DNA of 61,373 bases, taken from UHGV virus genome UHGV-1597594. One strand, written 5' to 3'. A model generated the notes under the pieces. That model saw only the letters and a program-made list of their open reading frames with translations, did no database searches and was not told where the DNA came from. This DNA is from a virus. Both the position numbers and the translations under genes were made by a program. Of the stretch, positions 30,807 through 49,994 are shown piece after piece; the first letter of the stretch is position 1, and each line of letters opens with the position of its first letter.

Positions 30807-31163
30807 CTATTTGCGCATAAATAATGCAGCAAGCCAATTAACTGGCTTGTCAATAAGCTGCTTCCATACATTCCAATTGTACATGCCATGCGCAAACATT
30901 GTAAGAGCAAACAGCAGCATACACATTGATACAAGCCAATCAGCAAATGGCATATTGCCCCATCGAATGTACTCGAAAATGCCAACTTTAACAAGCTGAG
31001 CAAACAAAATGAGCACTACAGCCATTGCAAGTCGCATCCAGACTACATAGTGCTGAGTCTTATCTACAAACTTTGCAATCAATGCTGGCACAATGTACAT
31101 AATGTATGCAAACAGCAACAAGCAAAAGCCTGCATACAGCAGATTAGAAATAAAAGCTCCCAT
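30807..31163 (-). CDS. small membrane protein
   Basis: ATG at 31163; 118 aa with three hydrophobic segments. Confidence 0.5.
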   Translation of the reverse strand: MGAFISNLLYAGFCLLLFAYIMYIVPALIAKFVDKTQHYVVWMRLAMAVVLILFAQLVKVGIFEYIRWGNMPFADWLVSMCMLLFALTMFAHGMYNWNVWKQLIDKPVNWLAALFMRK

Positions 31164-31166
31164 ATT

Positions 31167-32048
31167 CTATCGTTTGAATTTGATGAAGTGTTCAGCATCA
31201 AGGCCCTCGAATACATACGGGTCAAGAGTTTCCCAGAAGTTTGAGTATGTCGTTGTCTTTGCAATGCTTGTTTGCTTTGACAAGTTCATATTTGGGTAGC
31301 CAAGCATTGCATAGTGTCGCTCATATATGTGCATTGACGTCGCATTATGCACATATGCGCCAAGCTTAAGACCAAGTTCATTTGCGACAAGTTCTTGCAA
31401 CAAAGTGAATGCAAACTGGTCGTTACAGAAGCCCCAAATGACATCATTGCTTCGCATGTATGTTGTCAAGTACAGCTTATCACCACGAACATTAAAGACA
31501 AGATTCAATGTGCATGGCATGTCTTTGCCAGTGTAGTTTGCATATTGTGGCTCATAAATGCTAATAACTGCTCGTCTTGTGCATTCATGATTTCGCAAAC
31601 GTTCAATGACATCTGCAATCTGCTTATGCCAAATTGCACCATACTGCGAATTGACATTGACATCATCATCACTGAACTGCTTCCAGCGAGGCAAATAACG
31701 TTCAATGCATTCAACTGCAGGATTGGCTGTCATGTACCATGCAAATTCTGCTGCAGCATTGAGCTTTTTCCATGGTCGTACATCAATCTTGATTTGTCGC
31801 TGTGAAGGGTCCTGAATAACTACAGACACATTCAGCAATTCTTTTGTTCGAGTCACTGTTTGTGCATTGTTGCCCTTTGATTCTACAAACTCACCTCTAC
31901 AATGAAGTTCATACAAAATTGAGCGAAATGCTTCTGTTGCAGTGTTTTCAATGATTGTCGTCTGTTGATAACATAAATTTGACGACAATGATTCAGCATC
32001 ATTGTACTTTATGCTGTCATTGTTATAAGGTGAATTTTTTGTGTGCAT
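31167..32048 (-). CDS. ThyA-family pyrimidine hydroxymethylase-like enzyme (candidate dCMP hydroxymethylase)
   Basis: ATG at 32048. MPCTLNLVF (catalytic Cys region) and YMRSNDVIWGFCNDQFAFTLL align gap-free with ThyA RSCDVFLGLPFNIASYALL; Asp replaces the specificity Asn. Confidence 0.7.
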   Translation of the reverse strand: MHTKNSPYNNDSIKYNDAESLSSNLCYQQTTIIENTATEAFRSILYELHCRGEFVESKGNNAQTVTRTKELLNVSVVIQDPSQRQIKIDVRPWKKLNAAAEFAWYMTANPAVECIERYLPRWKQFSDDDVNVNSQYGAIWHKQIADVIERLRNHECTRRAVISIYEPQYANYTGKDMPCTLNLVFNVRGDKLYLTTYMRSNDVIWGFCNDQFAFTLLQELVANELGLKLGAYVHNATSMHIYERHYAMLGYPNMNLSKQTSIAKTTTYSNFWETLDPYVFEGLDAEHFIKFKR

Positions 32049-32069: not shown

Positions 32070-33167
32070 TTATCGTACAACGACAGTATCTCGTTTGCAA
32101 TCTGTTCTGTCAAATATCGAGCAACAATATGATGCAGATTGCTCTTTGATTGCAAGAGCTTCGTCATTGTCAAGTGATGAAATGCCATCTATGTATGCTT
32201 TTGCATTACCAGCAATATCATCATTTGTTAACAACGCTGCACGACGTTCAGCACCAAAGAAGCCAAAGCACAATTGACGCTGCAATGCTTCACGAGAAGT
32301 CTTGTCATCAAACTCGGATTTCATGTGTTGCATAAATTCGACAATGTCATCAATGTCACATTGAGTAAAGTCAATGTACAATTTATGCATATACTTGAAT
32401 CGTTTGTAGTCTGTTGCAAGAATTTCTGGATGTGCAATGAACAGCGTCTTTTTGCTATCTATTGGATTTGCAATGACTGACGCTTGAACATAATCAACAA
32501 GCATGCCAGATTTATGAAGCTGTTCAACTGTTTTGCCAAATACATGACCAAGTGTGTCATCAAACCACTTCAAGTACATTTCGCTGTCTTCATCTTTTGA
32601 TGCGCCAACAATGTAAATCTCATTGACTCCAAGTGCTTTGAGACGAATATCAGACAACATAGTGTTCAACTGATGCTGCACATATAGCATTGGGCTACTA
32701 TGCAAAACTGTCTTGACAATCTCACAAGCAATGTCCATATATGCATAGTCAAGCTTTGCAGATTTTGATACATATGCTGCACGTTGTTGCAATGGCTCAA
32801 TTGCAGAACATGTGGTCACAAAGTTGCCCACACATTCTGCTACTGCAATGTCATGCAAGTCATCTGCAATGTACACAATACTTGACAAATCATCAAATGT
32901 CTGTACAAGCTGCTGAAGCTTCGTTTTGTAATTGCAGAGCATCAATGACTTGATGTTGCAATTGCCAAGCATTGTCTTGATGAGTCGTTGACCTGCTTCA
33001 GTGCTATCACCAGAAATGACATGTACGTCGCAGTCAAACCAGTTCAGCATGTCAATTGCATGTCGAACACCATATTGCATTTGCTTTGCAAACTTACCAG
33101 ATTCATTGAACAGCATTTCACCTGACATAATGCCGTCAAAGTCACATACGATTTGAAGTCTGTCCAT
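32070..33167 (-). CDS. HAD-superfamily phosphatase (KdsC-like N-terminal domain) with an uncharacterised C-terminal domain
   Basis: ATG at 33167. VCDFDGI (HAD motif I), ISGDS, YIADDLHD (motif IV-like) in the first ~170 aa; about 190 further aa without a recognised motif. Confidence 0.6.
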   Translation of the reverse strand: MDRLQIVCDFDGIMSGEMLFNESGKFAKQMQYGVRHAIDMLNWFDCDVHVISGDSTEAGQRLIKTMLGNCNIKSLMLCNYKTKLQQLVQTFDDLSSIVYIADDLHDIAVAECVGNFVTTCSAIEPLQQRAAYVSKSAKLDYAYMDIACEIVKTVLHSSPMLYVQHQLNTMLSDIRLKALGVNEIYIVGASKDEDSEMYLKWFDDTLGHVFGKTVEQLHKSGMLVDYVQASVIANPIDSKKTLFIAHPEILATDYKRFKYMHKLYIDFTQCDIDDIVEFMQHMKSEFDDKTSREALQRQLCFGFFGAERRAALLTNDDIAGNAKAYIDGISSLDNDEALAIKEQSASYCCSIFDRTDCKRDTVVVR

Positions 33168-33531: not shown

Positions 33532-36500
33532 TTAACAAATTGATGACGTGCCATCAGTATTTGCTACAACTGTCAATGCACTATCAAACTCATCTTGTTG
33601 CAATACATGGTCAACTATGAGTGTTTTGCGAATTGCAGAAAGTTTGGTAAGCAATTGCATCAGCACTTGCTGATAATTGATATTGTTGACATCATGCTCA
33701 GCGCCAACAATCTGCCCATTGCTAAGCTTGCCACTGATTTCATCAATGAGCAAGATGTTGCCAACTTTGTTTAAGCGTTGAGTCAAAATGAGATGCACGA
33801 TTGCAAGACCTGCGAAAGTCCCTTCCATGCCAGACATTTGACTTACGCTTCTAATTGACTTCGAACCCATCAAGTCAATCATCTTCAGCACATTGTTGTC
33901 ATTGATGTCAAAGAACACTCGGTAGTTCAATGAATCCAGCAAATCATTGAGCTGTACATTCAATGATGTTGCAATTGCTGCAAAGACATATGAAACTAAG
34001 CCTCGTTTGCTTGTGCACTGCTTATATGCATTGTACACCAAGTTTGCAATGTTCCACTTTTTAGAAGCTTGCAAATCTTTCTTGAGAGCTTCAATTCGCA
34101 CATTGTTTGCTGACAAGTCTGCTTGCATTGTTGCAATTTCTGCATTGATGCTTAGCAGTTTTGAGTTTGCTTCAGTTTCATGCTGCTTAGCATCATCAAT
34201 GTCGACTTGCAATGCAGCATTTGCTGCAATATGCTGCTGAGTTTGCTGCGCATGTTCAAGTGCAAATGCTGCAGCAGTCTTATCAATCTCAAGTTGTTTA
34301 AGCGCAGACTCATATGTCGCTTTCTTGTCATACTCTATTTGAGCAATTTCAAGTTCAGCATTTATTGCAGCCAGTTCTGATTCTACTGCAGATTTTGATT
34401 GCAATACATCTTGCTTTGCTTGTTCAGCTTTACGTTTGATGTCTGCAAGTTGATTTGTGATATCTGCAATTTGTGTTTTGACTGCTTCGACTTCAAGCAA
34501 TGTTGCTGCAGTAGCTATTGGTTGTGCAATGAATGCGTCTAAGTCTCTTTGCGCATTGACTACAGTTCTCTGCAAATCATTGAGCTTTTCTGCATGCATA
34601 TCATATGCAGCTTTATGTGCTGGATTCAGCGCAGCAATAATTGCATTTGAATCTGTGACATCAATGACTGTTGCTTGCAATTGCTCAATTTCATACTTCA
34701 AATTGCCAATTTTGACAACATTCTCATTGAATTGCTCTGTTTTTTGTGCACATTCTTGACGCAACTTAGCAAGCTCAGTTGACAGCCACAGCTTGTATGC
34801 TTGTCCTGTGCCAGATGTCAAGTCATTTGTACATACAGGGCATTTGTCGTTTTCAAGTTGCTTTTGCTTGTCTATAACATTGTCGATGTTTGTTTTTGCA
34901 GCAGATACTTCTGTTCTAAGCGCATTTTGAACAGTGTTGATGTCTTCAATTTGCTTTTGCAAAGCATCTATTTTTGCCCGAGTGTTTGCATTGTACGACT
35001 TGCCAAGATTTATCAGCACAGAATCAATGTGCTGCTTTGCTGCATCATATGCAAGCTTTGATTCATCAAGCTTTGTTCTGTACAATAACTCTGCATGCGC
35101 AACTTCTTTCTGCACTTTTGCAGATAGCTCATTCTGTTTTGTAAGCAGCTCAGCATATGTATTGTGCAGCTGTGAGCCAGATGCTATGACATTTGTGTAT
35201 GCTGCATTAGCTTCATTGTCAATATTAGTGAGTTGTTGCTCAATCTGCGCTTTTACTGTTTGCAATTTAGACATGTCTTGCAATGCAAGTGCAGCAATGT
35301 CAAGCTCAACTTTGCGAATCTTTGCAACGATGCTATCGATATTTGCTGTTGCATCTTCTACAGTTAAAATATCTGCAGAAATTTGATGCAGTCTTTTTGA
35401 GAGCTCTTCTACTTTTGCACGTGCTTTTGTAAGTTTTGCAGACCACTCTTTTTGATTATCTTGTCGTAACTGCAAAGAGTCATTGAGTTCATTGCAAGTT
35501 GTATTGAGAGACTCAAGTTCTGCTTTTATTGCGACATCAGTCAACGCAGGTTTGCTAAGACCATCAAACAATGCAGCTTTTGCAGCATCATTAGAATTGC
35601 CGAGCTGCACAAATGTATTGATGCCAAGAGTATCAAGCAACCAGTCATTCAATGAATTTGAGTCCATTGCAATGATTTGGTCAAGCAATGTCTGATTGAT
35701 GCATACATATCGCGACAATTCCCATATAGAGCCAAAGATTGCATATAGTGTGTCTTTGATTTCATGCTGCGGCACTGCATAGTCATCTGACAATCGCACA
35801 AGTTGCACAGTCTCATTAACTGTTGACACATTGTCTCGCCATGAGCCATCTGCATTTATTCGAGAACCTCGTTTGAATTTGCGCTCAAGTGTTCGAGTCA
35901 ATTTGTAATGCACATTTTGACCCGCAACTACATGCACAAACACACAAGAAGCTTCAAGCTTGTCATATGACTCATTGTCAATCAACTTGTCATTGAAGTA
36001 CGTCAAAGCATTCTGCTTTGTTGCTGCAGAAGACTGTCCAGCGTCAATGAAGCCAGTCAATAGCCATTTAATAAGCCTAAAGATTGTTGTCTTGCCATTG
36101 CCATTGTTGCCTCTAACTTGTGTAAGTTGCGCAAGATTGTCAAAGCTAACATCAACATCTTTCAATGCCATGAACTGATTTGCTTTAACATTTTGAATGA
36201 CATATTTTGCAACTTCAGTGTCAAAAGACAATTTATCAATTTGTTCATCAATCAATGACTTGAACATGTCAACAAACTGCTGAGCGTCTTCAGTAGCAAC
36301 TATAGCATTGCGTTCAATGTACGCATTGACCCAGTCAAGTGCAGCATCTTTAAGCCATTCAGCAGTTTGAACTTTTTGCAGCAAATTGTCGCCATTTGCA
36401 TCTACAGCATTGATTGAATCAATGACAGCAGAATCATACAGAATGTCAATTGCGGCAACAACGTATGAACTTACAAGATTCTGTGCAATGCGCTCAACAA

Positions 36501-37458
36501 TACCAGACAGTTCGGGCTTTGTGACCTTTGACTTGATTTTGATTTTGTTGATGCGACCAGGATTGATGAGTGCAATCTTATCTGTTTTGATGTCATTGTC
36601 AATTGTGATTGTATGATAATGCACAAGCTGCTCAAGTGGATGCCACTCTGCACCAATTCGCTTGTTGTCAATATCGATGTCAAGCAAGTTGTAGCCATGT
36701 TCTGCAGTGCCCTGTTGCATTGCAGTGTCATTCAACAAATAGTCGCCTTCACCAAAATCTCTGACAATTGGCGAGCCGCAGTATGTTAATGTCTTGGTGC
36801 CAGAAGTCCATATTGCATGTTTGTGAATATCACCCATTGCAACAAAGTTGCTGTGAAACTGTGTTGCATCTATACGACTGTCATTGTCACCACGAACAAT
36901 ACAATCATCAAAGTTGACACAATTCTTTACTGGGTCATGGAACAGCTCAATGACACACATTGATGACAATGCTGCAATCTGCGATTCATCAAGTGATGCC
37001 CAAGGCGAATATGTGCCACCAGACCACTTCTCATTTTGAGCCCACACAGCAGCAGCAAAACCAGGTGCAAGCAATTCAACTCTTGAGCTATTGATGTATT
37101 TGATTCGCTTATCATCAATTGCAGTCACAAGCTTATCAATACTGTCTGTCCACTGCATTTGTGAGCCATCACCAGCATCAAATGTGTTATCACGTTGCTT
37201 CAAATCATGATTGCCTGCAGTGATAACGATTTGAAGCTTGTCATTGACTTCAAGCATGCCTTTGAGCAACTTAACAAACAGCGACTCTTCAAGTGAATTG
37301 CTGTTCCAATGCTCAAACACATCACCAACAATAAACACTAGCTCAACTGACTTTGCTTTGTCAATCAGTTGTTTGTTGATATACTCGTATTCTACAAAAC
37401 GTCGTAAATGCCCTTGTCGAACATTATATTGAATGTCTGCTATGTGAAGTGCTTTCAT
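33532..37458 (-). CDS. fused SbcD/Mre11-like phosphoesterase and SbcC/Rad50-like ATPase (single 1308-aa polypeptide)
   Basis: ATG at 37458. N-terminal HIADIQYN, VGDVFEHW, ITAGNHD (calcineurin-like phosphoesterase motifs); then Walker A GNNGNGKTT, a long coiled-coil region and C-terminal ILLIDEISGKL (Walker B/D-loop). Confidence 0.8.
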   Translation of the reverse strand: MKALHIADIQYNVRQGHLRRFVEYEYINKQLIDKAKSVELVFIVGDVFEHWNSNSLEESLFVKLLKGMLEVNDKLQIVITAGNHDLKQRDNTFDAGDGSQMQWTDSIDKLVTAIDDKRIKYINSSRVELLAPGFAAAVWAQNEKWSGGTYSPWASLDESQIAALSSMCVIELFHDPVKNCVNFDDCIVRGDNDSRIDATQFHSNFVAMGDIHKHAIWTSGTKTLTYCGSPIVRDFGEGDYLLNDTAMQQGTAEHGYNLLDIDIDNKRIGAEWHPLEQLVHYHTITIDNDIKTDKIALINPGRINKIKIKSKVTKPELSGIVERIAQNLVSSYVVAAIDILYDSAVIDSINAVDANGDNLLQKVQTAEWLKDAALDWVNAYIERNAIVATEDAQQFVDMFKSLIDEQIDKLSFDTEVAKYVIQNVKANQFMALKDVDVSFDNLAQLTQVRGNNGNGKTTIFRLIKWLLTGFIDAGQSSAATKQNALTYFNDKLIDNESYDKLEASCVFVHVVAGQNVHYKLTRTLERKFKRGSRINADGSWRDNVSTVNETVQLVRLSDDYAVPQHEIKDTLYAIFGSIWELSRYVCINQTLLDQIIAMDSNSLNDWLLDTLGINTFVQLGNSNDAAKAALFDGLSKPALTDVAIKAELESLNTTCNELNDSLQLRQDNQKEWSAKLTKARAKVEELSKRLHQISADILTVEDATANIDSIVAKIRKVELDIAALALQDMSKLQTVKAQIEQQLTNIDNEANAAYTNVIASGSQLHNTYAELLTKQNELSAKVQKEVAHAELLYRTKLDESKLAYDAAKQHIDSVLINLGKSYNANTRAKIDALQKQIEDINTVQNALRTEVSAAKTNIDNVIDKQKQLENDKCPVCTNDLTSGTGQAYKLWLSTELAKLRQECAQKTEQFNENVVKIGNLKYEIEQLQATVIDVTDSNAIIAALNPAHKAAYDMHAEKLNDLQRTVVNAQRDLDAFIAQPIATAATLLEVEAVKTQIADITNQLADIKRKAEQAKQDVLQSKSAVESELAAINAELEIAQIEYDKKATYESALKQLEIDKTAAAFALEHAQQTQQHIAANAALQVDIDDAKQHETEANSKLLSINAEIATMQADLSANNVRIEALKKDLQASKKWNIANLVYNAYKQCTSKRGLVSYVFAAIATSLNVQLNDLLDSLNYRVFFDINDNNVLKMIDLMGSKSIRSVSQMSGMEGTFAGLAIVHLILTQRLNKVGNILLIDEISGKLSNGQIVGAEHDVNNINYQQVLMQLLTKLSAIRKTLIVDHVLQQDEFDSALTVVANTDGTSSIC

Positions 37459-37555: not shown

Positions 37556-37903
37556 TCATTTTGCAAGCATTTTGCTGATTGCATCTATCACAGTTTCACT
37601 GAGCAAGTAGTAGACAACGCTTATCAGCAATGATATCAGTACTGCAGCTGTGATAAATTGCAACGCATTCATAATTGCACGCACAAATGTTATTTGCGTG
37701 TTGTATGCAAGCACTATGCAGCATAACATAATGATGATACACCACACTACAATTGCATATGCAGGCAGCAATGAATTTGTCCATATGCAGTACAATGCAG
37801 TAGTTAGCATCAAAAATGCTATTGCTCTGATGACTGACACAATGATGTCTATGTAGGGCTTCATTGCACGTAAATGAACTCTTGGCTTATGCGGTTTCAT
37901 CAT
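37556..37903 (-). CDS. small membrane protein
   Basis: 115-aa ORF, mostly hydrophobic. Confidence 0.5.
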   Translation of the reverse strand: MMKPHKPRVHLRAMKPYIDIIVSVIRAIAFLMLTTALYCIWTNSLLPAYAIVVWCIIIMLCCIVLAYNTQITFVRAIMNALQFITAAVLISLLISVVYYLLSETVIDAISKMLAK

Positions 37904-39132
37904 GACTTTATGTACAATTCTGCAAGTTGTCTGGTGTACAGTCGTGGATTATGATATGCTTTCCAATATGCAGTAGACTTTATTGCAGCAAGAATCTCAT
38001 CATAATGTTTGACTGCTTCTGCTACAACTTCATCAAGCACGCTCAAATCTTCTACACTGACAAGCAACCATTTTTCTACAATATCAATGAACTCCTGATT
38101 GCAATTGAAGCCATACTTGTAGTTGCAAGTGTCAAGTACAAGTGGAATGCAATCATTTGTCAATGCTTCAAAAAATCTACGAAGACTGAAACAATTCTCA
38201 TCATATGATGGAATGCTTAATGTAAACTTGGCAGTCTTGATGAGTTGCAAATACTCTTCATATGGAATCAGAGGACCATTGTGCTTCCACTGATTGTTAT
38301 GTCGTCTTGTTGTGTACTTGAACAAAAACTTTGAACTGTCAAGCTCACAAAGATGGTCCATGCGTAAAATGTAGTTATAGCGGTCTCTTCTATCAGGCCA
38401 ACTGTCAGTCATTGCAAACACAAAGTCTCTTTGCTTGTCACATTTTGCTGACATGCCTCTATGCTGACACATGCAATACCAATATTGCTGTGATGGACTG
38501 AACTCGAATTTTGAGTGATGTTCGCTTCCATCTTTGCATTGTTGAACGTAAATATTGTCAGGCACAAAGTGAAAATAGAAGTGTCGAATTTGCAAGCCGT
38601 CAATGTAGTCAAGCTTATGCTGCAATGGGTCTTCACAGAAATTGTAACATTGAATGTGCTTTACTGCTGCATACTCAGCAACTATGAATGTGCACATCCA
38701 TTGCAATGCAATATCTTCACTTTTCAAAAAGTCTACAAGCGGTTCGTTTGGATGCGCTTTGCATTCATTGAACATTTTGTACCACTTGCACTGCTCCATA
38801 TCGTACTTTGAGACTGTATTGCCATTAAAGAATGACACAGTGTCAATTTTGAATGCATCAAGCTGTTTATGCACAATGTCAAGTGCTTGTGCATATGTGA
38901 TTGTCTCATCAGACATTATCTGCGCAAACTTGATTGGATATGCATGCAAATTTGCGATAGTGTCTGCTGACATTTTACGCTGTGTATGATAATCGACATA
39001 CAAAAACTGACATTTATCTGTAAGCAATTCAAGCATTGCTACAGATTTCCATCGAATTGCTTGAAAGAAATTGAAGTGCGCAGTTTGAAAAATGAGATGC
39101 GTAGGCTTGTCAGAATGAGTCAAAGTTTGCAT
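37900..39132 (-). CDS. GT-B-fold glycosyltransferase-like protein (paralog X1)
   Basis: ATG at 39132 (track start 39138 is TTG). C-terminal PSYDENCFSLRRFFEALTNDCIPLV fits the GT-B/GT4 signature PSxxExxxxxxxxEAxxxGxPxV; EDPLQHKLDYIDG and SPSQQYWY are shared with CDS 42133-43689. Confidence 0.6.
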   Translation of the reverse strand: MQTLTHSDKPTHLIFQTAHFNFFQAIRWKSVAMLELLTDKCQFLYVDYHTQRKMSADTIANLHAYPIKFAQIMSDETITYAQALDIVHKQLDAFKIDTVSFFNGNTVSKYDMEQCKWYKMFNECKAHPNEPLVDFLKSEDIALQWMCTFIVAEYAAVKHIQCYNFCEDPLQHKLDYIDGLQIRHFYFHFVPDNIYVQQCKDGSEHHSKFEFSPSQQYWYCMCQHRGMSAKCDKQRDFVFAMTDSWPDRRDRYNYILRMDHLCELDSSKFLFKYTTRRHNNQWKHNGPLIPYEEYLQLIKTAKFTLSIPSYDENCFSLRRFFEALTNDCIPLVLDTCNYKYGFNCNQEFIDIVEKWLLVSVEDLSVLDEVVAEAVKHYDEILAAIKSTAYWKAYHNPRLYTRQLAELYIKS

Positions 39133-40295
39133 GGACAAATGTCGCAGTTATGTTGATGTTTGTGTTTATTTATGAAGTCATATGTCACTGCAAAAAAGTG
39201 CTTTGCAATGTCATATCGAGTTTTCAAATATGACGCTTGGCGTTCACAAAACGCTGCATAAATGTCTGGGTGTTGTTTGAATGCAGCAATGCGTTGCTGT
39301 ACTTGTTCTGCAGAATGTACATATGACACTTTGCTCAAATATGCATCATCTGCAAATAATCGTCTGTCTTTGTCAACTGCGCAATCAACAAAAGTTGCAA
39401 TTCGTGCAACAATGGCTTCACCAACACGATTTGGCATCAACCCATATTGCTCATATTGTTGGTCACCAATAGCAATGTGTGCTGCTGCATATGACATTGC
39501 ATATGGCACACTATAAAATGGCACGCTAAAATCAAATGAGCAATTTGACTGTAGTAGTTGCGCTTGTGCATCAGACAATCTACTTGTCAAGTTGCCTGTA
39601 TGTTTGTGCTCACCAAGAAAACTTGAGCGACAACCTGAATCTACATAGTATCGAATGACTTTGTTTATGCGACTGTCAGATAGCATATGCCAATCTCTTG
39701 TAGCATATATCAAGTCTACTGTTTTTGCACCAATATGACGAGGCTCTATCGCAACATTGCTGTACGTTGGTAGCATGAACAATGGCAGCCATTTGACATT
39801 GTTGAACACTGAATGCTCATTTGACAAATTCATGCACTGGCTAAGTTCAAGTACTGGCTCATCATACACGCCATGTAGCTCAACTCTGCCTGCATGCACA
39901 AAGTTGACACGCTTAAATGGGAATCGCATGTCAGTACAAATTGTCATTCTTGCTGCAGTAGACATTCGCCACATAGCATGCAGCTTAACAACTGCTTCTG
40001 CTTGAGGTCGAGGCAACATATTTAGCAAATCAATCCAGCCACCCCACAAAATCCAAACATCATTTGAACAGATGTTGAATTGCAAACTCAATATGTCTTC
40101 TACTGTTGCAGCAATGATGTCATGCCCATTGATGCTTGCAAGGTGCTTTCGTTGATTTGCAATAAGAATGACTTGGCTGAATGGAGACTCTGGAAATGAC
40201 ACAAGCGCTTTTGCAAACAACACGGGTTCTTGCGACACCAAGTTGTTTGAGTATGGGTCGATTATGCAATCAAGCTTGTGTATGAAGAGTCTCAT
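39120..40295 (-). CDS. hypothetical protein (paralog Y1 of 43686-44855)
   Basis: 391 aa; shares AHIAIGDQQYEQYGLMPNRVGEAIV with LVVGDSLYVQAGLLPNRWVEGVL of CDS 43686-44855. Confidence 0.55.
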   Translation of the reverse strand: MRLFIHKLDCIIDPYSNNLVSQEPVLFAKALVSFPESPFSQVILIANQRKHLASINGHDIIAATVEDILSLQFNICSNDVWILWGGWIDLLNMLPRPQAEAVVKLHAMWRMSTAARMTICTDMRFPFKRVNFVHAGRVELHGVYDEPVLELSQCMNLSNEHSVFNNVKWLPLFMLPTYSNVAIEPRHIGAKTVDLIYATRDWHMLSDSRINKVIRYYVDSGCRSSFLGEHKHTGNLTSRLSDAQAQLLQSNCSFDFSVPFYSVPYAMSYAAAHIAIGDQQYEQYGLMPNRVGEAIVARIATFVDCAVDKDRRLFADDAYLSKVSYVHSAEQVQQRIAAFKQHPDIYAAFCERQASYLKTRYDIAKHFFAVTYDFINKHKHQHNCDICPCKL

Positions 40296-41026
40296 TTTGC
40301 AGATGATTCAAAAAATTTGTAGACATCGCAGTTAGCAATGTGGTCATTCCAAGCATCTTCAGAGTCTGCAACAAAGCCACAATGACAGCGTTTTGGTTGC
40401 CAAACTGGTTCAACTACTGCAGGCATTGCTTCTTCAATAGTGTTTGCAGGTTCATTATCTGCTGGCAATACTTCAACGTCTTCAACTTGTGCTGCATCTT
40501 GTTGTGTACGCTGCTCAATGACATTGCCCTCAAAGTCAAACTGAATGCCAGCTTGTTCTGCTTTTGTACGATTGTTACGAGCTACGAACAAATACGCAAA
40601 GATGAATTCGACAAGCGCTATAGCAAGTGACTTCAATGCATTGACAAGAAGCATGATGCCAGTTGATAAGTGACCATCAAAGCTCAAAAATACGAACACA
40701 CATGTAAAGCATGACATAAACACTGCAATCAGTGGAATGTTCTTGTATTTTGGCAACAAATCAGAGTTGACTGACGTAAGCAACACAACGAATTGATAGC
40801 CTATCGCAAGCCAATGGTCGCCAAACACTGCATAGATATGCGTAGTGATGCCAATAAGAAATGTGATAGTCACAATCATAATGAGCAACACACTTGTCAG
40901 AAAGTCTGCAATAGAATTGCTGAGCTTGTCATACCAGTGTTTGTTGACAATTGATGTGTTGGCTACGCGCACTTTACTAAGTGCATCTATGCCGCTTTTG
41001 ATATTTGATTGTGCTTTCATACACAT
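40292..41026 (-). CDS. polytopic membrane protein
   Basis: 244 aa with at least four hydrophobic segments and a Cys/His-containing C-terminal tail. Confidence 0.55.
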   Translation of the reverse strand: MCMKAQSNIKSGIDALSKVRVANTSIVNKHWYDKLSNSIADFLTSVLLIMIVTITFLIGITTHIYAVFGDHWLAIGYQFVVLLTSVNSDLLPKYKNIPLIAVFMSCFTCVFVFLSFDGHLSTGIMLLVNALKSLAIALVEFIFAYLFVARNNRTKAEQAGIQFDFEGNVIEQRTQQDAAQVEDVEVLPADNEPANTIEEAMPAVVEPVWQPKRCHCGFVADSEDAWNDHIANCDVYKFFESSAK

Positions 41027-41514
41027 ATAACGTTATATCATATCTACACACAAAGCAAATGCTACTGCAAGTGCAGCCATAATTGCATATATGACTATTG
41101 ATGCAGTATAATCTGATTCAGGATTCCACTTATCAGGTGTGTTAAGCTTGTGATACTTGTCTCGTCTCATCTTGAGTCAAAAAATGATGGCTGCTGCTAC
41201 ATTTTGTGAAATCATGTGCAGCAGCCATCTGGCAGGTTTCTTGCTTTGTAAAGCTTGGATAGAGGATGGATTTTATATGTTGATATTGTACAACATATAT
41301 TGTCATTTTGCACAGTCTGATGCAATCAAATCTTTGTCAAAACATTCATCTATAATGTCTTCAATAAGATACGCTTCGACATTGTTAAGCTTCAAGATAT
41401 CTACGAGTTTTGCTTTGATATCGCAAGCTAATGCAGATTCAACTGTATGCAATATGACTGATGATGCGACATGCTTGTCTGTCATCATTTGTAATTGCTG
41501 TGGTGTTACTCTAC

Positions 41515-42087
41515 TCATGCACCAAGTTCAGCTAAGCATTTCAACACATTGTCTTGCAGACTTACATTATTGTCGATTTCGACAATATGCAATGGTGAGT
41601 TCTTTCGCCACTCATCATATGCAGCAATCATTTCATTGCGTTTGCTGACATCAATGTTGACATTACCACAAAAGTTATCGACAAAATCTGGTGCGACATC
41701 ACGCTTGCATAAGAACACTACATGCGGCAATGTTGCAAGCTTCTTTTCATATGCTTCAAAGAATGCTTGATGCTTATCAGTGTGCAACTCTTTGTAAAGC
41801 GTTGTGTTGAAGATTTGATGTGTGATGAACGAACGGTCACACAAAAATGTTGCTTTGTCAAAGCCTTGAGAGTCATTTCCAATGAACTCTAAGAAGAAGC
41901 GCCAATCATAAAAGAACGCTTCATTGAGGTCCCAAGGTTCGGGCATTGGGTCATCACCTGACTCATGCTGTTGCCACCAAGAACGAGATGTTCGTTTGCA
42001 ATTGATAAACCATGGGCGCCACTTCATCAATTCATTGATGAGTGTTGTTTTGCCTGAAGCTTCTACACCTTCAAATATTGCTATCAT
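41515..42087 (-). CDS. thymidylate-kinase-like P-loop dNMP kinase
   Basis: ATG at 42087. N-terminus MIAIFEGVEASGKTT matches the Tmk P-loop (IxxEGxxGxGKTT). Confidence 0.7.
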   Translation of the reverse strand: MIAIFEGVEASGKTTLINELMKWRPWFINCKRTSRSWWQQHESGDDPMPEPWDLNEAFFYDWRFFLEFIGNDSQGFDKATFLCDRSFITHQIFNTTLYKELHTDKHQAFFEAYEKKLATLPHVVFLCKRDVAPDFVDNFCGNVNIDVSKRNEMIAAYDEWRKNSPLHIVEIDNNVSLQDNVLKCLAELGA

Positions 42088-42132
42088 TGTGTATTATGTT
42101 TGATTTTTGATTACAGTACAACGTAGTTATGC

Positions 42133-43689
42133 TCATTGCACTTCTACGAATGGCTCTTTCAACACAAAGCTGTCACCATTGCAACATGCGGCTGAGCAAT
42201 CGTCTGCATCAAGTGCACATGACATATCAGACTTACAGAACTTGCAATATGAACATGACCATGCATGACTCATAAAGTCGTTTGCTTCACAAATTACACA
42301 GCGCTCATGTGAAAGTGTATTGTCGCAATTGTCACAAGACTTTTTGATTGGCACATCTTTATTGATATATGCAAGATGCAATGCAATATCATACACAAAG
42401 TCGCCCGTATATTGCTGAATGAAATCAGTGTGCCACAGTTCTTTCAATAATTGCGCATGTCTGTATGGCTGAACAATGTCTTCAAGATGCTGCAAGTCAT
42501 CATCGCTAACCATGAGCTTCTTAATGACAAACTGTTTGAACTGTGGCCATCTGTCAAACATATAGAGTTTGCATGAGTTGTGCACAAGTGGAACACAGCC
42601 AAGCACAATGCTTTCACAGAATCTACGCAAACTAAAACAGTTTGCATCATATGACGGCACAATCAATGTGAATCTGCTATGCTTGATGAGTTCAAGGTAT
42701 GTGTCATATGGCAGTAGCTTATCTGACAATTGCTGTTGTTGTTTGTCTCTGCTGAAAAATCTGAACACAATGCCTTTGTCAATTGCATCTTGATTGTGTA
42801 GATGCATGAGTTTGCTGATGAGTTCTGTGCGTTCAGTTTTGTCTCGCCAAGTATTCGTCAATGCAAATGCAAAATTTAGTCGCTTGTCATCAAATGTCGC
42901 TTCAATGTCATTCCAAGTTTTGCCATGCAAATACCAGTATTGCTGTGATGGACACCATCCATAGTATGCGACAGCATCTTGTTCTGCTGTAACGTCGTAC
43001 ACATATGCAGAATTGTATTCAAGACCAAGCTTTTTGACATTGTTGCAGTCATGAAAATACCAATGCTGCACTTTGAATATCTTTGATGCACTGAATGCGC
43101 TTTCATATGGCCCTGAATAGCGATAGTCAATGTAATTGAGCTTGTGCTGCAATGGGTCTTCGACAAAGTTGTTTATGACTGTGCCTTGTTGTTTGTCCTT
43201 AGTCTTGCGAGCATTCAATGCAACATTGTATTGCATGATGACTGACAGCATCTCATACACTACATACATGAGTGCTTTGTAGACTGAGCCTGCTGCGTCA
43301 ATTAGTGGCAAATCACGTTTGACTGATGTAGCACCAAATGTCTTGCAATATGCAGAAAATGTGTCAAGTTCTGCTTGCTGAAATGAATTGCATGCACCAT
43401 TGAATATGTTGAATGTTGCAATGTAGCTCATATTGCAAGACGTCATTGACATATCAAGACGCTTCATAATGTCGACAATGCGACATTGAGCAAAATCTGA
43501 CACATCAACATATTTGACATGATGGCATGATGTAGTCAAGCCATCTGCGACATCTTTCATCTGTGGCACAAAGCCTATAACAATGAACAAGTCATCTTTG
43601 TTTGCTCGTTCAAACATTGCTGCACTTTTCCAAGTCAATGAATTGAAAAAGTCTATGTAGCCAGTTTGAGTGATGATATGTGTTCTCAT
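42133..43689 (-). CDS. GT-B-fold glycosyltransferase-like protein (paralog X2) with Cys-rich C-terminal extension
   Basis: ATG at 43689. PSYDANCFSLRRFCESIVLGCVPLV signature; about 80 extra C-terminal residues with 14 Cys. Confidence 0.6.
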   Translation of the reverse strand: MRTHIITQTGYIDFFNSLTWKSAAMFERANKDDLFIVIGFVPQMKDVADGLTTSCHHVKYVDVSDFAQCRIVDIMKRLDMSMTSCNMSYIATFNIFNGACNSFQQAELDTFSAYCKTFGATSVKRDLPLIDAAGSVYKALMYVVYEMLSVIMQYNVALNARKTKDKQQGTVINNFVEDPLQHKLNYIDYRYSGPYESAFSASKIFKVQHWYFHDCNNVKKLGLEYNSAYVYDVTAEQDAVAYYGWCPSQQYWYLHGKTWNDIEATFDDKRLNFAFALTNTWRDKTERTELISKLMHLHNQDAIDKGIVFRFFSRDKQQQQLSDKLLPYDTYLELIKHSRFTLIVPSYDANCFSLRRFCESIVLGCVPLVHNSCKLYMFDRWPQFKQFVIKKLMVSDDDLQHLEDIVQPYRHAQLLKELWHTDFIQQYTGDFVYDIALHLAYINKDVPIKKSCDNCDNTLSHERCVICEANDFMSHAWSCSYCKFCKSDMSCALDADDCSAACCNGDSFVLKEPFVEVQ

Positions 43690-44855
43690 GATTTGAATGT
43701 TTGTTCAAGAATAGTGTAACACTGCACAATCATTGCTGCAAGAGCTTTTTGCTGTGCTTGTTTGCAATCATCAAAATTTGTGGGCGCGGTGCGTACGCGT
43801 GTTTTGCTATTAAGTGTTGCAAATGTCGCGTAGTCATTGAAGTCTACGATATCAGCAAATATGGCGCTTGGCTCATAATCTACAAGTATATTGCAGCAAT
43901 TTGCAAGTACGCCTTCAACCCATCGATTTGGCAGCAAGCCTGCTTGCACATACAATGAATCACCAACTACAAGATTGTACGCGGACCTCGACATTACATG
44001 AGGCATTGCATCATATGCGACTTTGTATTTAAGTGTAAAGTTTGGCGCTGCTGATTTAACCGCAGACAAAATTGTGTCATCAAGATATGATGTTATGAGA
44101 CATGTGTCGCACATATGTATGACAAATTGTTCAATCACACTTCTACGATACTCGTCAAGATATGTGAAACCTGCACAACTTGCACAGCATGCATATTGCT
44201 GCTTTATGTCAGCAAAGCTAAGCACATGAGCTTCAATTGCATTTTGCATCGTTGCTTGTCGTTTGAGCAATCTTGGCTCTTTAATGCATTGAAGCTTCAA
44301 TGCATTGACTGCTGCAATGATTTGCAATGGCACAAACACGCATTGAGACTCATCAAGCCAAGCATACTTGAGATTTTTATGTTGACACAGATGCGTAATG
44401 TAGTCTTTTTGCGATTCTAAGTACTCTTTGTAATTGTGCAATCGCTTTGTCAATGTGCACTCTTTACCAAAATCAAATCGCAAATCAGTTGTTAGCGTAA
44501 ATTTGCGAACATTTGACAAACACCATGCTTTGAACGCATTCCACAGAACATCTTGCTGAAATTCTGAGCAATGCTCAAGAGCAGCCTTTGAGCCCTGCCA
44601 GAATATTGCGCAATCATCTGATTTTGCACACTTCAGCATATCTTGCCATGCATGTATGTTATTGATAATATGCACGTTATCATAATACACAAGCTCTTCA
44701 AGTATTGCATGCTTGTTCTCAGGGTCGCCAAACACGTACACTGCATCAAACATTGTTTGAACAAACCCTGCAAATGCAATGGGTTCTGTATGTTTAAGAT
44801 GCTGTATGTCTGAACGCACACATGTGTCAAATTTCAAAATGAAGAGTTTGCTCAT
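43686..44855 (-). CDS. hypothetical protein (paralog Y2)
   Basis: ATG at 44855, preceded by the promoter-like box at 44875-44895; homologous to CDS 39120-40295. Confidence 0.55.
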   Translation of the reverse strand: MSKLFILKFDTCVRSDIQHLKHTEPIAFAGFVQTMFDAVYVFGDPENKHAILEELVYYDNVHIINNIHAWQDMLKCAKSDDCAIFWQGSKAALEHCSEFQQDVLWNAFKAWCLSNVRKFTLTTDLRFDFGKECTLTKRLHNYKEYLESQKDYITHLCQHKNLKYAWLDESQCVFVPLQIIAAVNALKLQCIKEPRLLKRQATMQNAIEAHVLSFADIKQQYACCASCAGFTYLDEYRRSVIEQFVIHMCDTCLITSYLDDTILSAVKSAAPNFTLKYKVAYDAMPHVMSRSAYNLVVGDSLYVQAGLLPNRWVEGVLANCCNILVDYEPSAIFADIVDFNDYATFATLNSKTRVRTAPTNFDDCKQAQQKALAAMIVQCYTILEQTFKS

Positions 44856-45552
44856 ATGCTTTGCAATTATCTATTACATGTTGATATTGTACTTCATCTA
44901 TGATGTGATTTGCAATGACACCATATGAAGTGTCATACATTGGCATCTTCTCATATGACAATGCTGCATCAAGATTGCATATCACATAATTGCAATGCAC
45001 AATGTCATCTACATTGTCACTAACTGCTACGATATTGACACACTTTGCAAGAAATGCATCATCAAAGTCTACTTGATTGCATGCAACCTCATAATCTGCA
45101 GCGCTTCTTGGGTACCAATATAACTCAATGCCTGCACTGCTAAGTAGTCGCAAGCCATCTATGTGATGATACAAGTCAATAAAATGCACTTGCTTAACAC
45201 CTGCTTGCAAAATAAGCTTTGCGCAATCAATGCATGGACTATATGTTACATACAACACAGCATCGTTTGCAGTCGCATTGCCATATTTGCACAGCTTCAT
45301 CAATGCATTTGATTCTGCATGCAAAACTTCTTTGTTGGTTTTGATGCCAGCTGAAGTATCATGTTCGCAACAATTTGACATACCAGTTGGCATGCCATTG
45401 TAGCCATCTGAAATTATGCGGCTGTCTTTTACAAGCAATGCGCCAACTTTTGCTCTCTGAGCATGTGAATTCAATGACCAAAGCTCAGCCATTTTAAGAT
45501 ATATGAGATTTCGTTGAAACCACTTCGTTTCAGACCAAGTCAGCCATTTCAT
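44827..45552 (-). CDS. dCMP deaminase (cytidine/deoxycytidylate deaminase zinc-binding family)
   Basis: ATG at 45552. HAESNAL (H-A-E) and YSPCIDCAKLI (PCxxC) zinc-ligand motifs. Confidence 0.8.
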   Translation of the reverse strand: MKWLTWSETKWFQRNLIYLKMAELWSLNSHAQRAKVGALLVKDSRIISDGYNGMPTGMSNCCEHDTSAGIKTNKEVLHAESNALMKLCKYGNATANDAVLYVTYSPCIDCAKLILQAGVKQVHFIDLYHHIDGLRLLSSAGIELYWYPRSAADYEVACNQVDFDDAFLAKCVNIVAVSDNVDDIVHCNYVICNLDAALSYEKMPMYDTSYGVIANHIIDEVQYQHVIDNCKAYEQTLHFEI

Positions 45553-45556
45553 GTGT

Positions 45557-46945
45557 TTACAGTGAATTTATGATTTTAATGAAGTCAGCTATAATGTTTG
45601 AATGCAGCTCAATGAGATAGTTGTCTTGTAATGTCATAAGCTCATCAAGTTCATCTACACTTAATGACTTGAAGACTTCTGCACAATGCTTGGCATTTTT
45701 GATGTGTGCGACTTTATGATACTTGATAAAGTCAGGACACACACAATTATTCACGTACATACAAGGCAAGCCTGCAAGCATTGATTCAGTTGCTCTGAAT
45801 GTAATTGCGTTGCATTGTTTCATATTCTCTTCACACACAATGTATGCAAAGTCGAACTGCGACAAGTATGTTAACATGTCAAAATACTTGATTGTGCCAT
45901 CATAGACATGTGGCATATCAATGTCGATATTGCCGACAACATGAGTTTCGATGTCTGCGCAGCCAAGCAAATCAATGACTTCTTGTTTGCGTTCAGCACA
46001 CATGTCATTCCAAGCAACCATCGGCATTGCAGTAGTCAACTTGCCTGATTGCAATTTTGCTAAACGTTTTTCGTTATGTGATGCATACAATGGAATGCCT
46101 TCAAGTCTTGCATGCTGAATTGTGTTGACATTGATTTCTGTCAGCATTGACAACGCATTATGCATGTTCTGTGCTTGTGTGACAACTGTCATCTTTTTGC
46201 AGCGCAATCTAAAGTTTGCAATGTGTGGCACGAGTCGTAAATCATACCATAGCCATACAATGTCGCCCTTCCATGATTCAATGAGTTGCTTGTGCTGTTT
46301 GTAGATGACTGACTGACTCATCGAGTCATTCATTGCTGAGCATACAATGTACAACACACCATATTTGTCAATTGAGTGCTGCACATAGTCAACTGAGCAG
46401 CATAGCACATCTTTGTCGAAAAGTTTTGGGTCATGCACTTCTGCATCATCTACAATAAGATGCGCCTTGTATTGATGCTGCTTTGTTGCGTCAATGATGC
46501 GAGCAATTGCAAAGCATTCTCTACTTTGAATGTCTGTCTTATCTTGTCGCAGCTGGTCTTGTGTTCGTACAGGATATGCAGGCTTAAGTATTACAGGCAC
46601 AAAATGCGTTTTTGCAGAATATGGCACATCTACTGCAGCAAACTCCGCGTTGCATCGTTGTGAATGCAGATGTCGTGCATATGATTGCAACAATGCATGA
46701 ATCATTGTAATGTACTCTTCCAATTCAAACACCTCGTGTTCAGTTGTGTTTGTTATGTCGACCACGGCATTTTGTCGCACAATTGGATATACACAAATAG
46801 CGTAGTCATTATATGGCAGCGGAATGCCTATAAATGTTGAGTATCTGTTTCGAAGCCATGCAATGCAATCAACATCAAACACAATGTCATATTGCTGCTG
46901 CAAAGCATTTAATTGCGCTATAATCAAATCATTGTGCATATTCAT
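45557..46945 (-). CDS. glycosyltransferase-like protein (GT-B C-terminal signature)
   Basis: ATG at 46945. YIVCEENMKQCNAITFRATESMLAGLPCMYV resembles the GT-B Ex7E...E(A/S)MxxGxPxx signature. Weaker than the X1/X2 match. Confidence 0.5.
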   Translation of the reverse strand: MNMHNDLIIAQLNALQQQYDIVFDVDCIAWLRNRYSTFIGIPLPYNDYAICVYPIVRQNAVVDITNTTEHEVFELEEYITMIHALLQSYARHLHSQRCNAEFAAVDVPYSAKTHFVPVILKPAYPVRTQDQLRQDKTDIQSRECFAIARIIDATKQHQYKAHLIVDDAEVHDPKLFDKDVLCCSVDYVQHSIDKYGVLYIVCSAMNDSMSQSVIYKQHKQLIESWKGDIVWLWYDLRLVPHIANFRLRCKKMTVVTQAQNMHNALSMLTEINVNTIQHARLEGIPLYASHNEKRLAKLQSGKLTTAMPMVAWNDMCAERKQEVIDLLGCADIETHVVGNIDIDMPHVYDGTIKYFDMLTYLSQFDFAYIVCEENMKQCNAITFRATESMLAGLPCMYVNNCVCPDFIKYHKVAHIKNAKHCAEVFKSLSVDELDELMTLQDNYLIELHSNIIADFIKIINSL

Positions 46946-49676: not shown

Positions 49677-49994
49677 TTATTGCATATTGTCGACAATCAG
49701 CTGTTCAAGTGCAATAGCTGACAATGCACCAGTAGCACGACCAACTTCAATGCAATCATGAAAGACAATTGTCGTTGGTACTGAACGAACATTATGAGTG
49801 CTATCAAGCTCATCGCACTCTTCAACATTCACTTCAGCAAATGTCACCTTGCCATTAAATTTCTTTTCAGTTGACTCGAAAATTGGCGCATAGCCTTGAC
49901 AAGGCACGCACCATGGCGCACTGAACTTCACTACAACGAGCGGATTGTTTGCAAGTGCTCGAGCCATTTCAGCTTTATGTTTGAGTTGCAACAT
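49677..49994 (-). CDS. trx: thioredoxin
   Basis: ATG at 49994. 105 aa with active-site WCVPC (canonical WCGPC) at the expected position. Confidence 0.75.
   Translation of the reverse strand: MLQLKHKAEMARALANNPLVVVKFSAPWCVPCQGYAPIFESTEKKFNGKVTFAEVNVEECDELDSTHNVRSVPTTIVFHDCIEVGRATGALSAIALEQLIVDNMQ

Follow-up and report, generated by a model that had tools for sequence, protein, structure and literature searches.

Which molecule receives the sugars of a phage that carries five glycosyltransferase genes in one cluster? The question is raised by UHGV virus genome UHGV-1597594, of which we analyzed a stretch of 61,373 nt (the window), about one third of a genome of ~175 kb; the same phage, at 98% protein identity, is found on two IMG/VR contigs of ~175 kb, and ~113 kb lie outside the window. 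Transcription follows the minus strand almost throughout, and positions 46945 to 37556 form a tight co-directional array. We conclude that this region is probably the sugar-transfer part of a hypermodification system built on the plan of phage T4, where 5-hydroxymethylcytosine (5hmC) would be made before replication and the DNA would be glycosylated after it. The phage most likely decorates its own hydroxymethylcytosine with sugars, thereby escaping host nucleases. An earlier first-pass annotation had proposed post-replicative glycosylation of hydroxymethyl-pyrimidine DNA, and this proposal is supported by the homology of three of the transferases to T4 beta-glucosyltransferase (BGT), by the residue signature of a ThyA homolog and by the gene layout of phage PAU. 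From the same residue signature, the acceptor base can be narrowed from a pyrimidine to a cytosine of the 5hmC type.

A module of five GT-B-type genes

The first-pass annotation counted three GT-B-like genes and two partner genes; we correct this count to five genes of the GT-B type, named Z, Y1, Y2, X1 and X2 below. The array is listed in the direction of transcription, with the basis of each assignment in brackets.

45557-46945, minus strand: Z, a BGT-like glycosyltransferase of 462 aa (family-profile homology to T4 BGT)
44827-45552, minus strand: deoxycytidine monophosphate (dCMP) deaminase with a C-terminal extension of ~90 aa (Pfam, PHROG, zinc motifs)
43686-44855, minus strand: Y2, a BGT-like GT-B glycosyltransferase and paralog of Y1 (BLASTP, profile, residue alignment)
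42133-43689, minus strand: X2, an X-family GT-B glycosyltransferase with a Cys-rich C-terminal tail (paralogy to X1)
41515-42087, minus strand: P-loop nucleotide kinase with a Tmk/deoxynucleoside kinase fold (motifs, weak profile matches, a homolog in phage MA9V-2)
41142-41518, minus strand: two small putative open reading frames (ORFs) of 71 aa and 54 aa, separating the kinase from the polytopic membrane protein (ORF list)
40292-41026, minus strand: polytopic membrane protein with ~4 transmembrane segments (hydropathy and sequence)
39120-40295, minus strand: Y1, a BGT-like GT-B glycosyltransferase (PHROG, profile, hhalign, Foldseek, residues)
37900-39132, minus strand: X1, an X-family GT-B glycosyltransferase (paralogy to X2, structural model)
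37556-37903, minus strand: small hydrophobic membrane protein of 115 aa, flanked by X1 and the Mre11-Rad50 gene (hydropathy)

All nine ORFs that had been described at first pass are present in the ORF list, on the minus strand and co-directional. Most neighboring genes overlap, by 4-29 nt. The end of the polytopic membrane protein gene overlaps the start of Y1 by 4 nt, and the end of Y1 overlaps the start of X1 by 13 nt, placing the X1 ATG within the final Y1 codons. The Y2 stop and the X2 ATG share 4 nt, as ATGA; the final 29 nt of the dCMP deaminase gene overlap the start of Y2, and the 71-aa ORF overlaps the stop of the kinase by 4 nt. The mechanical ORF of X1 reaches a TTG at 39138, and its homolog P0001 begins with MQTLTH, which corresponds to the ATG at 39132.

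The proposed paralogy holds for both pairs of genes. X1 and X2 are 30% identical over ~440 columns (BLASTP, E = 5e-48), and Y1 and Y2 are 24% identical (BLASTP, E = 1e-14). At the DNA level, the two Y-X pairs still resemble each other in no more than three short pieces of motif sequence (30-87 nt), and the duplication is therefore old. The presence of a membrane protein with ~4 transmembrane segments, a Tmk-like kinase and a dCMP deaminase is likewise upheld, by hydropathy for the first and by motifs and matches for the other two. None of the five glycosyltransferases has a transmembrane segment or a signal. The two small ORFs have no family match in Pfam or PHROG, the promoter and terminator scan did no better than shuffled sequence, the Rfam and transfer RNA scans were empty, and none of 50,697 phage records matched the whole module in a megablast search.

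Y1, Y2 and Z as distant relatives of T4 BGT

We quantified the relationship of each transferase family to known enzymes with profile searches, structural models and residue alignments. These gave GT-B-type assignments for the X and the Y/Z families, not folds of non-glycosyltransferases. Y1 and Y2, previously considered accessory partners, are rather homologs of T4 BGT and, by their profiles and residues, the proteins of the module closest to a DNA glycosyltransferase. Z, already suspected of being a glycosyltransferase, is supported as one by profile search and hhalign, again as a T4 BGT homolog. Judged by these sequence relationships, the three proteins are distantly related paralogs within the T4 DNA beta-glucosyltransferase lineage, the one lineage of transferases acting on DNA bases that is well known.

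With single sequences of Y1, X2, Z and the kinase as queries, PDB searches gave no significant match; only family profiles did. A Y-family profile of 7 sequences, Y2 included, has T4 BGT as its sole match among PDB sequences (E = 1.5e-5). A 3-sequence Z profile had no match there; Z had two word-index homologs, and an exhaustive profile search extended the family to 12 representatives. The deepened Z profile has one significant PDB match, T4 BGT (E = 1.7e-10, chain residues 40-336). In hhalign comparisons, the Z family aligns with the Y family (probability 97%, E = 3.8e-11), and both align with T4 BGT (NC_000866), the Y family with a probability of 94.6% (E = 7e-8) and the Z family with one of 94.0%. 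Y1 and one Z-family member also match PHROG 7922, 'beta-glucosyltransferase' (E = 3e-8 and 8.7e-7, respectively). A tblastn search of Z against phages found no match.

The GT-B fold of Y1 and X1 comes from AlphaFold2 (AF2) models, and that of Y2 and Z from homology. The Y1 model is of moderate confidence (pLDDT 67.8). T4 BGT entries occupy its six top Foldseek ranks (E = 1.3e-6 to 2.9e-4), and generic GT-B enzymes come next; 1NZD, in which D100 is mutated (D100A), is listed among the matches.

The active site provides a further comparison. In T4 BGT, we take Asp100 and the neighboring Glu22 to be catalytic, and Arg191, Arg195, Arg269 and Glu272 to bind uridine diphosphate (UDP). In a joint alignment of T4 BGT and 22 Y/Z-family sequences, T4 E22, D100, R102, R269 and E272 are invariant, and R195 is nearly so, with a Lys in one homolog. 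The residues aligned with T4 E22, D100, R102, R195, R269 and E272 are E23, D122, R124, R209, R290 and E293 in Y1, and E143, D235, R237, R319, R384 and E387 in Z. Y2 has the motifs HTEP and TDLRF at T4 E22 and D100/R102, DEYRR at R195 and PNRWVEG at R269/E272.

T4 BGT is a member of CAZy family GT63 (PDB 1BGT, 1J39, 1NZD). Y1, Y2 and Z share with that family sequence similarity, fold and the catalytic Asp and Glu, but no curated family model recognizes them; consequently, we describe them as distant relatives rather than as ordinary GT63 members. Their structure-based identity to T4 BGT is only ~13-16%. Whereas T4 has one BGT, which adds a single glucose, this phage has three BGT-like paralogs, and Z differs from T4 BGT by an extra N-terminal extension of 115 aa.

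As a separate observation, the C-terminal end of Y1 (39120-39165) carries a short HxHxxCxxCxC tail, HKHQHNCDICPCKL, which is kept in the Y1 orthologs P0013-P0017.

X1 and X2, a GT-B family outside GT47 and GT63

The motif PSYD.NCFSLRRF.E, shared by X1 and X2, had been read as a GT-B signature. It is rather a motif of the X family, invariant in 14 of 14 X-family sequences; 12 X homologs were found among 5.8 billion proteins. X1 was modeled by AF2 with high confidence (pLDDT 89.2, pTM 0.86), and the model has 171 Foldseek matches in the PDB at E<=1e-3; the best 50 of these 171 all belong to the GT-B superfamily. The nearest structures include three base-directed phage DNA glycosyltransferases, and EXTL3 and EXT1 are among the matches.

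Both proteins have a partial similarity to Pfam Exostosin_GT47 (PF03016), with E = 1.6e-4 and 21.5 bits for X1 and E = 4.5e-6 and 26.6 bits for X2. The scores fall below the gathering cut-off of 33.4 bits and cover ~100 residues, at profile positions ~160-260 of 293, which does not place X1 and X2 in GT47. The similarity sits in their C-terminal Rossmann domain; a precomputed PF03016 match exists for 7 of the 12 X homologs, and both proteins also have sub-threshold matches to Pfam Glyco_trans_1_2. GT47 enzymes are membrane-anchored builders of polysaccharides, whereas the X proteins are soluble and phage-encoded. Nor do they belong to GT63 by sequence, as no sequence relation of X to BGT, Y or Z was found. 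The X-family profile matched nothing among PDB sequences, and the sole tblastn match of X1 among phages was a motif segment of 67 aa in a Pseudoalteromonas phage.

By inspection, two parallels to T4 BGT suggest themselves. The X motif SLRRFFEA-x4-C-IPLVLD appears to correspond to T4 TLRVWETM-x4-VMLID in sequence and predicted secondary structure, and the invariant ED of the X family (169-170), following the strand 163-168, seems to parallel T4 D100 after its own strand. The most apt description of X is a new family of the GT-B type, which fits neither GT47 nor GT63 and has phage DNA glycosyltransferases as its nearest structural neighbors.

The C-terminus of X2 (42133-42360) is a Cys-rich tail of ~75 aa with CxxC, CxxC, CxxCxxC and further such motifs, kept in the homologs P0011/P0012. 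One Cys-rich tail per Y-X pair was considered as a conserved design and is ruled out by the orthologs without tails in the metagenomic relative L002.

Nucleotide-metabolism and sugar genes near the module

A glycosylated hydroxymethylcytosine requires that the hydroxymethyl group be made, and three further genes of the window bear on this step.

32070-33167, minus strand: KdsC-like HAD protein of 365 aa (weak PDB matches, phage homologs)
31167-32048, minus strand: ThyA-family enzyme of 293 aa, predicted to be a T4-type dCMP hydroxymethylase (Pfam, residue signature)
26910-27968, minus strand: genuine thymidylate synthase of 352 aa (Pfam, NCBIfam, residues)

The ThyA homolog lies 6 kb downstream of the module, in the same direction and beyond the Mre11-Rad50 gene. 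It matches Pfam Thymidylat_synt (1.3e-24) and is 27% identical to T4 gp42. Its specificity can be predicted from residue criteria (PMC13326640), which ask for the catalytic Cys146, an acidic residue at L143, a retained Asp169 and, for dCMP specificity, an Asp at N177; an Asn at position 169 (D169N) marks a synthase of 5-hydroxycytosine (5hoC). The enzyme has DMPC (Asp at L143, followed by the catalytic Cys), RSND (D169 kept) and GFCND (Asp at N177), the pattern of T4 gp42 with its DFMC, RSND and GFRND. RSND differs from the 5hoC-type sequences of RB69 gp48 (RSQN) and PAU gp182 (RSNN), and the deoxyuridine monophosphate (dUMP) hydroxymethylases of SPO1 and ViI lack the Asp at N177 and have an Asn one position later. 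The hydroxymethylase candidate of the first-pass annotation thus has the T4-type dCMP-hydroxymethylase residues (L143D, D169, N177D) and, as it shares the T4 gp42 pattern, is predicted to make 5-hydroxymethyl-dCMP (5hm-dCMP).

A tblastn high-scoring pair crossed the TAG stop of this gene into an in-frame ORF, 30807-31163, and readthrough was considered. It is ruled out: the downstream ORF has its own ATG and encodes a hydrophobic membrane protein (minus strand, 118 aa) that begins four bases past the TAG in the same frame. At 293 aa, the window enzyme is shorter than the ThyA homologs of L002 (364 aa) and MA9V-2 (447 aa).

The thymidylate synthase is a separate gene, matching Pfam at 1.1e-76 and NCBIfam thym_sym at 239 bits (cut-off 108), and keeps L143, D169 and N177. 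Thymidine hypermodification, by 5-hydroxymethyldeoxyuridine and a DNA kinase, is ruled out by this real synthase together with the Asp at N177 of the ThyA homolog. Compared with the Pfam model of 266 positions, the synthase has insertions, among them ~30 residues directly behind the catalytic-Cys segment. The dCMP deaminase matches Pfam dCMP_cyt_deam_1 (3e-21) and PHROG (3e-45), and has the zinc motifs HAE and PCIDC (PCxxC); its domain spans residues 17-150, and the ~90-aa extension has no family match.

The kinase has the P-loop GVEASGKT and a DRS motif, a PHROG thymidylate kinase match (1.7e-5) and weak Pfam matches. It is 36% identical to the 'thymidylate kinase' gp145 of MA9V-2, whose gene immediately precedes the MA9V-2 ThyA homolog. 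The HAD protein, encoded directly upstream of the ThyA homolog, has a KdsC-like sugar-phosphate phosphatase domain in residues 6-151. It weakly matches 2p9j and the KDO-8-P phosphatases in the PDB (E = 6e-4 to 1e-2), has no Pfam match, and has homologs in MA9V-2 (gp142, 32% identity, 3e-22) and PAU (gp216). With its C-terminal region of ~215 aa, which has no detectable relatives, it may be a bifunctional sugar-donor enzyme.

Related phages carry similar gene sets

The window encodes a fused Mre11 (metallophosphatase) and Rad50 (AAA_23/SMC) protein of 1308 aa (33532-37458, minus strand), which in T4 are the products of two genes, 47 and 46. The fusion is present at full length in MA9V-1/2 and Tenacibaculum PTm1/5 (24-27% identity), and in PAU as the C-terminal ~180 aa only. 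This fusion places the phage in the PAU-like group (Chryseobacterium phages MA9V-1/2, Tenacibaculum phages PTm1/5 and pT24, Sphingomonas phage PAU), and gp32 and UvsW-type genes are further common features of PAU, MA9V-1/2 and the window phage. The order of glycosyltransferase, small membrane protein, Mre11 and Rad50 is that of T4 a-gt, 47.1, 47 and 46. Because the gene order matches T4 but X1 and T4 alpha-glucosyltransferase (alpha-GT) have no sequence similarity, the position of the transferase may have been conserved while the enzyme was replaced.

The module is retained in two close metagenomic relatives. L002 has the order Z', dCMP deaminase, X2', Tmk-like kinase, ..., polytopic membrane protein, Y1', X1', Mre11-Rad50, ..., HAD protein, ThyA homolog. 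It has no Y2 ortholog; its dCMP deaminase ortholog adjoins the X2-like gene. The other relative, L001, has a Z-like gene, and a Y-like gene with an overlapping X gene adjoining Mre11-Rad50. Overlapping Y-X pairs, and the duplication of the pair, are confined to the window phage and its close metagenomic relatives.

Beyond these, the Mre11-Rad50 gene of MA9V-2 is surrounded by Z-like gp112 (hidden Markov model search, 1.4e-47), a Y/Z-like gene, gp115, and X-like gp132 (1.1e-8), and this phage also has a Tmk-like kinase, a ThyA homolog and a HAD phosphatase. MA9V-1 encodes an isomerase of the GutQ type as well as a GlmU-like protein, whose C-terminal domain matches the RB69 gp52 sugar kinase (1e-23).

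In PAU, the ThyA homolog gp182 has two BGT-like genes, gp179 and gp180, at a distance of two genes upstream, and a Tmk-like kinase lies beside glycosyltransferase gp171. One PAU region (L017 11658-20303) contains the two BGT-like genes, two further uncharacterized genes of 397-410 aa, the D169N ThyA homolog and deoxythymidine diphosphate (dTDP)-sugar genes of the dTDP-rhamnose type; another (L017 34026-38187) contains an arabinose-5-phosphate isomerase, the 576-aa gp215 and the HAD protein. A PAU homolog of the RB69 nucleotidyltransferase/kinase ORF53_52c has been reported. The isomerase, the HAD phosphatase and the nucleotidyltransferase/kinase are thus all present in both MA9V and PAU, and the examined 49 kb of PAU yielded no X-like gene. 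The literature describes PAU DNA as carrying modifications so extensive that its size was wrongly estimated (PMC7824862), and our literature search found no paper naming the chemistry or the enzymes of this modification. PAU differs from the window phage by its ThyA homolog, which is of the D169N (5hoC) type where the window enzyme has D169, and we predict from its sequences that PAU makes glycosylated 5-hydroxycytosine with more than one kind of sugar.

A proposed pathway

The pathway is assembled from homology, conserved residues, folds, gene arrangement and conservation in relatives, from which we infer its chemical steps, acceptor base, enzyme order and sugars. Prior to replication, the ThyA homolog (31167-32048) would turn dCMP into 5hm-dCMP. 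The Tmk-like kinase (41515-42087) is a candidate for the first phosphorylation of this modified deoxynucleoside monophosphate (dNMP) on its way to the triphosphate, which the phage polymerase would then incorporate. In parallel, the dCMP deaminase and the true thymidylate synthase would supply deoxythymidine mono- and triphosphate (dTMP/dTTP), like cd and td in T4.

After replication, the soluble enzymes Y1, Y2 and Z would flip out 5hmC and move a sugar from a nucleoside diphosphate (NDP)-sugar onto its hydroxyl. The Asp equivalent to T4 D100 would act as the general base, and the Arg/Glu pair equivalent to T4 R269/E272 would hold the nucleotide diphosphate. X1 and X2, translationally coupled to Y1 and Y2, would most likely extend the first sugar or add an alternative one, giving cytosines that carry di- or oligosaccharides. 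The KdsC-like phosphatase probably feeds a phage-specified sugar donor; together with the arabinose-type genes of the relatives, it offers a hint that the sugar is specified by the phage. Such DNA would be expected to resist restriction and CRISPR nucleases of the host.

Several points weigh against this pathway. The DNA modification itself is predicted from the genes. The 61-kb window, about a third of the genome, yielded no dCTPase, no dNMP kinase of the T4 gp1 type and no gene of NDP-sugar synthesis beyond the weak HAD match. T4 R191 lacks a conserved counterpart in the Y/Z alignment, and neither Pfam nor NCBIfam recognizes any of Y1, Y2, Z, X1 and X2 at threshold; the 13 Z-family members are likewise without a match. 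The Y1 model is only moderate (pLDDT 68), with a TM-score of ~0.4 to BGT. Finally, the conserved polytopic membrane protein inside the module has no obvious job in DNA modification.

Further searches of the window bear on the missing genes. A PHROG scan of ten neighboring unknown ORFs found nothing, and Pfam scans of ten more found only a thioredoxin. A tblastn search with RB69 gp50-55 had no match in the window, and Pfam found no SIS or nucleotidyltransferase domain in the window ORFs scanned; of the UDP-arabinose genes known from the RB69/DLP3 type of pathway (arabinose-5-phosphate isomerase, HAD phosphatase, NTP-transferase/kinase), the window yielded only the KdsC-like HAD domain.

One sugar or several, and on which acceptor

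Glycosylation by 'more than one sugar' was part of the first-pass proposal, and we infer it by analogy, from the number of glycosyltransferase genes and the precedent of DLP3, RB69 and RL38J1. In these phages, the number of glycosyltransferases tracks the number of sugars; DLP3, with three, makes tri-arabinosyl-5hoC, and RL38J1, also with three, makes tri-hexosyl-5hoC (PMC13326640). Provided that the DNA is glycosylated, we favor, on balance, a chain of at least two sugars over parallel mono-glycosylation.

In the parallel arrangement, each of the five enzymes would attach one sugar directly to the base, with the anomer, the sugar or the sequence context varying from enzyme to enzyme, and the phage would contain a mixture of mono-glycosylated cytosines. 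Y1, Y2 and Z each keep the BGT active-site residues, which are those of a base-directed enzyme, and three base-directed phage DNA glycosyltransferases are among the nearest structures to X1. T4 itself splits its 5hmC sites between alpha-GT and beta-GT, using two transferases for mono-glucosylation. However, five enzymes for mono-glycosylation would be without precedent, the transferase number tracks the chain length in the three phages above, and X is a distinct family that is coupled to Y in the window and in two close metagenomic relatives, which fits successive steps better. We consider parallel mono-glycosylation unlikely.

The arrangement of the chain could be more elaborate. The Y-X pairs may be two-component units, in which Y flips the base and adds the first sugar and X extends it; with Z, the product would be a branched or four-to-five-sugar cytosine glycan. 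This is a speculative and rather improbable design, but if true, a two-unit assembly line would make the largest base-linked glycan known in DNA, the membrane protein with its zinc-finger-like tail might tether the assembly line to the membrane, X would be a new family of DNA-glycan-extending transferases, and an equivalent BGT-like kit would account for the heavily modified DNA of PAU.

The acceptor may instead lie outside DNA, either in envelope glycans and teichoic acids (for superinfection exclusion or seroconversion) or in virion proteins, with the gene neighborhood a coincidence. The conserved membrane protein inside the module and the weak GT47 signal of X would fit such a role. Yet the sole sequence-level PDB relative of Y and Z is a DNA glycosyltransferase, and all five transferases are soluble, having neither signal nor transmembrane segment. 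Seroconversion uses a GT-A enzyme (GtrB), a GT-C enzyme (GtrC) and a flippase (GtrA), and no such matches exist in the module by Pfam or PHROG. Moreover, the genes lie within a replication and nucleotide block at the position of T4 a-gt, and in PAU they adjoin the ThyA homolog. A non-DNA acceptor is accordingly quite improbable.

Lower still is the probability that DNA is the acceptor with 5-hydroxycytosine or 5-hydroxymethyluracil in place of 5hmC, which would leave the scheme otherwise unchanged. The D169N rule is recent and derives from a limited set of tested enzymes (PMC13326640), the relative PAU combines the D169N form with Y/Z-family transferases, the window enzyme shares only 27% identity with T4 gp42, and its nearest annotated relatives are labeled variously as dCMP hydroxymethylase, dUMP hydroxymethylase and thymidylate synthase. 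Against these stand D169 (RSND) and the Asp at N177, both as in T4 gp42, the latter lacking from dUMP hydroxymethylases; the separate genuine thymidylate synthase and the dCMP deaminase argue for normal thymine synthesis. We regard another base as very improbable and retain 5hmC.

Catalytically dead glycosyltransferase-like proteins are unlikely, as the active-site residues are invariant.

Comparison with known DNA-sugar systems

The gene content resembles that of RB69 and Acinetobacter phage DLP3, with their poly-arabinosyl-5hoC clusters, and of Rhizobium phage RL38J1, with its tri-hexosyl cluster (Lee et al., NAR 2026), where clustered GT-B DNA glycosyltransferases likewise occur with a ThyA homolog, a Tmk-like kinase and a HAD sugar phosphatase. 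Tmk-like 'nucleotide kinases' lie within the DNA glycosyltransferase clusters of all three phages (PMC13326640). The differences are that their ThyA homologs are of the D169N type and make 5hoC, that their transferases resemble GT4 enzymes (BshA, MshA, PimA) and not BGT, and that they have two or three transferases where the window has five.

A second class of systems depends on a methyltransferase and a TET-like dioxygenase, and places mono-, di- or trisaccharides on 5hmC (Pyle et al., bioRxiv 2023.12.21.572611). The GT-B members of these clusters, like Y1 of the window, have a structural match to T4 BGT, in their case with Foldseek E values of 1e-5 to 1e-7. In these clusters, 5hmC is made on the DNA by the methyltransferase and dioxygenase, whereas the window phage is predicted to synthesize it at the nucleotide level with its ThyA homolog; our scans of window ORFs revealed no methyltransferase and no TET-like gene.

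New in the present system are the three BGT-like paralogs in one phage, the unclassified GT-B family coupled to them and the duplication of the Y-X pair. By sequence homology, BGT-like enzymes are also extended to the PAU/MA9V/PTm phage group. The T4 BGT lineage thus reaches distant, mostly Bacteroidota-infecting phages (PAU, MA9V, PTm1), in which the genes are still annotated as hypothetical, and it offers a concrete explanation for the heavy DNA modification reported for PAU. Few phage shields against restriction enzymes and CRISPR nucleases are as strong as glycosylated cytosines, which are in turn targeted by type IV restriction systems and newly found glycosylase defenses. Beyond the T-even phages, a handful of such systems have been worked out, and the set described here is unusually large, with five transferases that include an unclassified GT-B family. 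A potential use of the enzymes is the labeling of 5hmC with new sugars.

Membrane proteins and other genes of the window

The polytopic membrane protein combines its ~4 transmembrane segments with an acidic linker and a cytoplasmic C-terminal, zinc-finger-like motif, CxC-x(12-13)-H-x4-C. It has no significant family match. Its L002 ortholog (8084-8845) is 47% identical, lies at the equivalent position and keeps the Cys/His motif; the protein is better conserved than the glycosyltransferases downstream of it.

The majority of the remaining window ORFs have no Pfam or PHROG match, and those that can be assigned are all on the minus strand. They include a protein that combines head-fiber dimeric domains with a PEGA domain (1511-3001), a thioredoxin (49677-49994) and a papain-like cysteine protease (55367-55981). 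The family-B DNA polymerase is split between two ORFs (3145-4437 and 7798-9303), with the exonuclease and the start of the polymerase domain on one and the remainder on the other. The two lie ~3.3 kb apart, with five ORFs between them, one of which is a DUF7487 protein.

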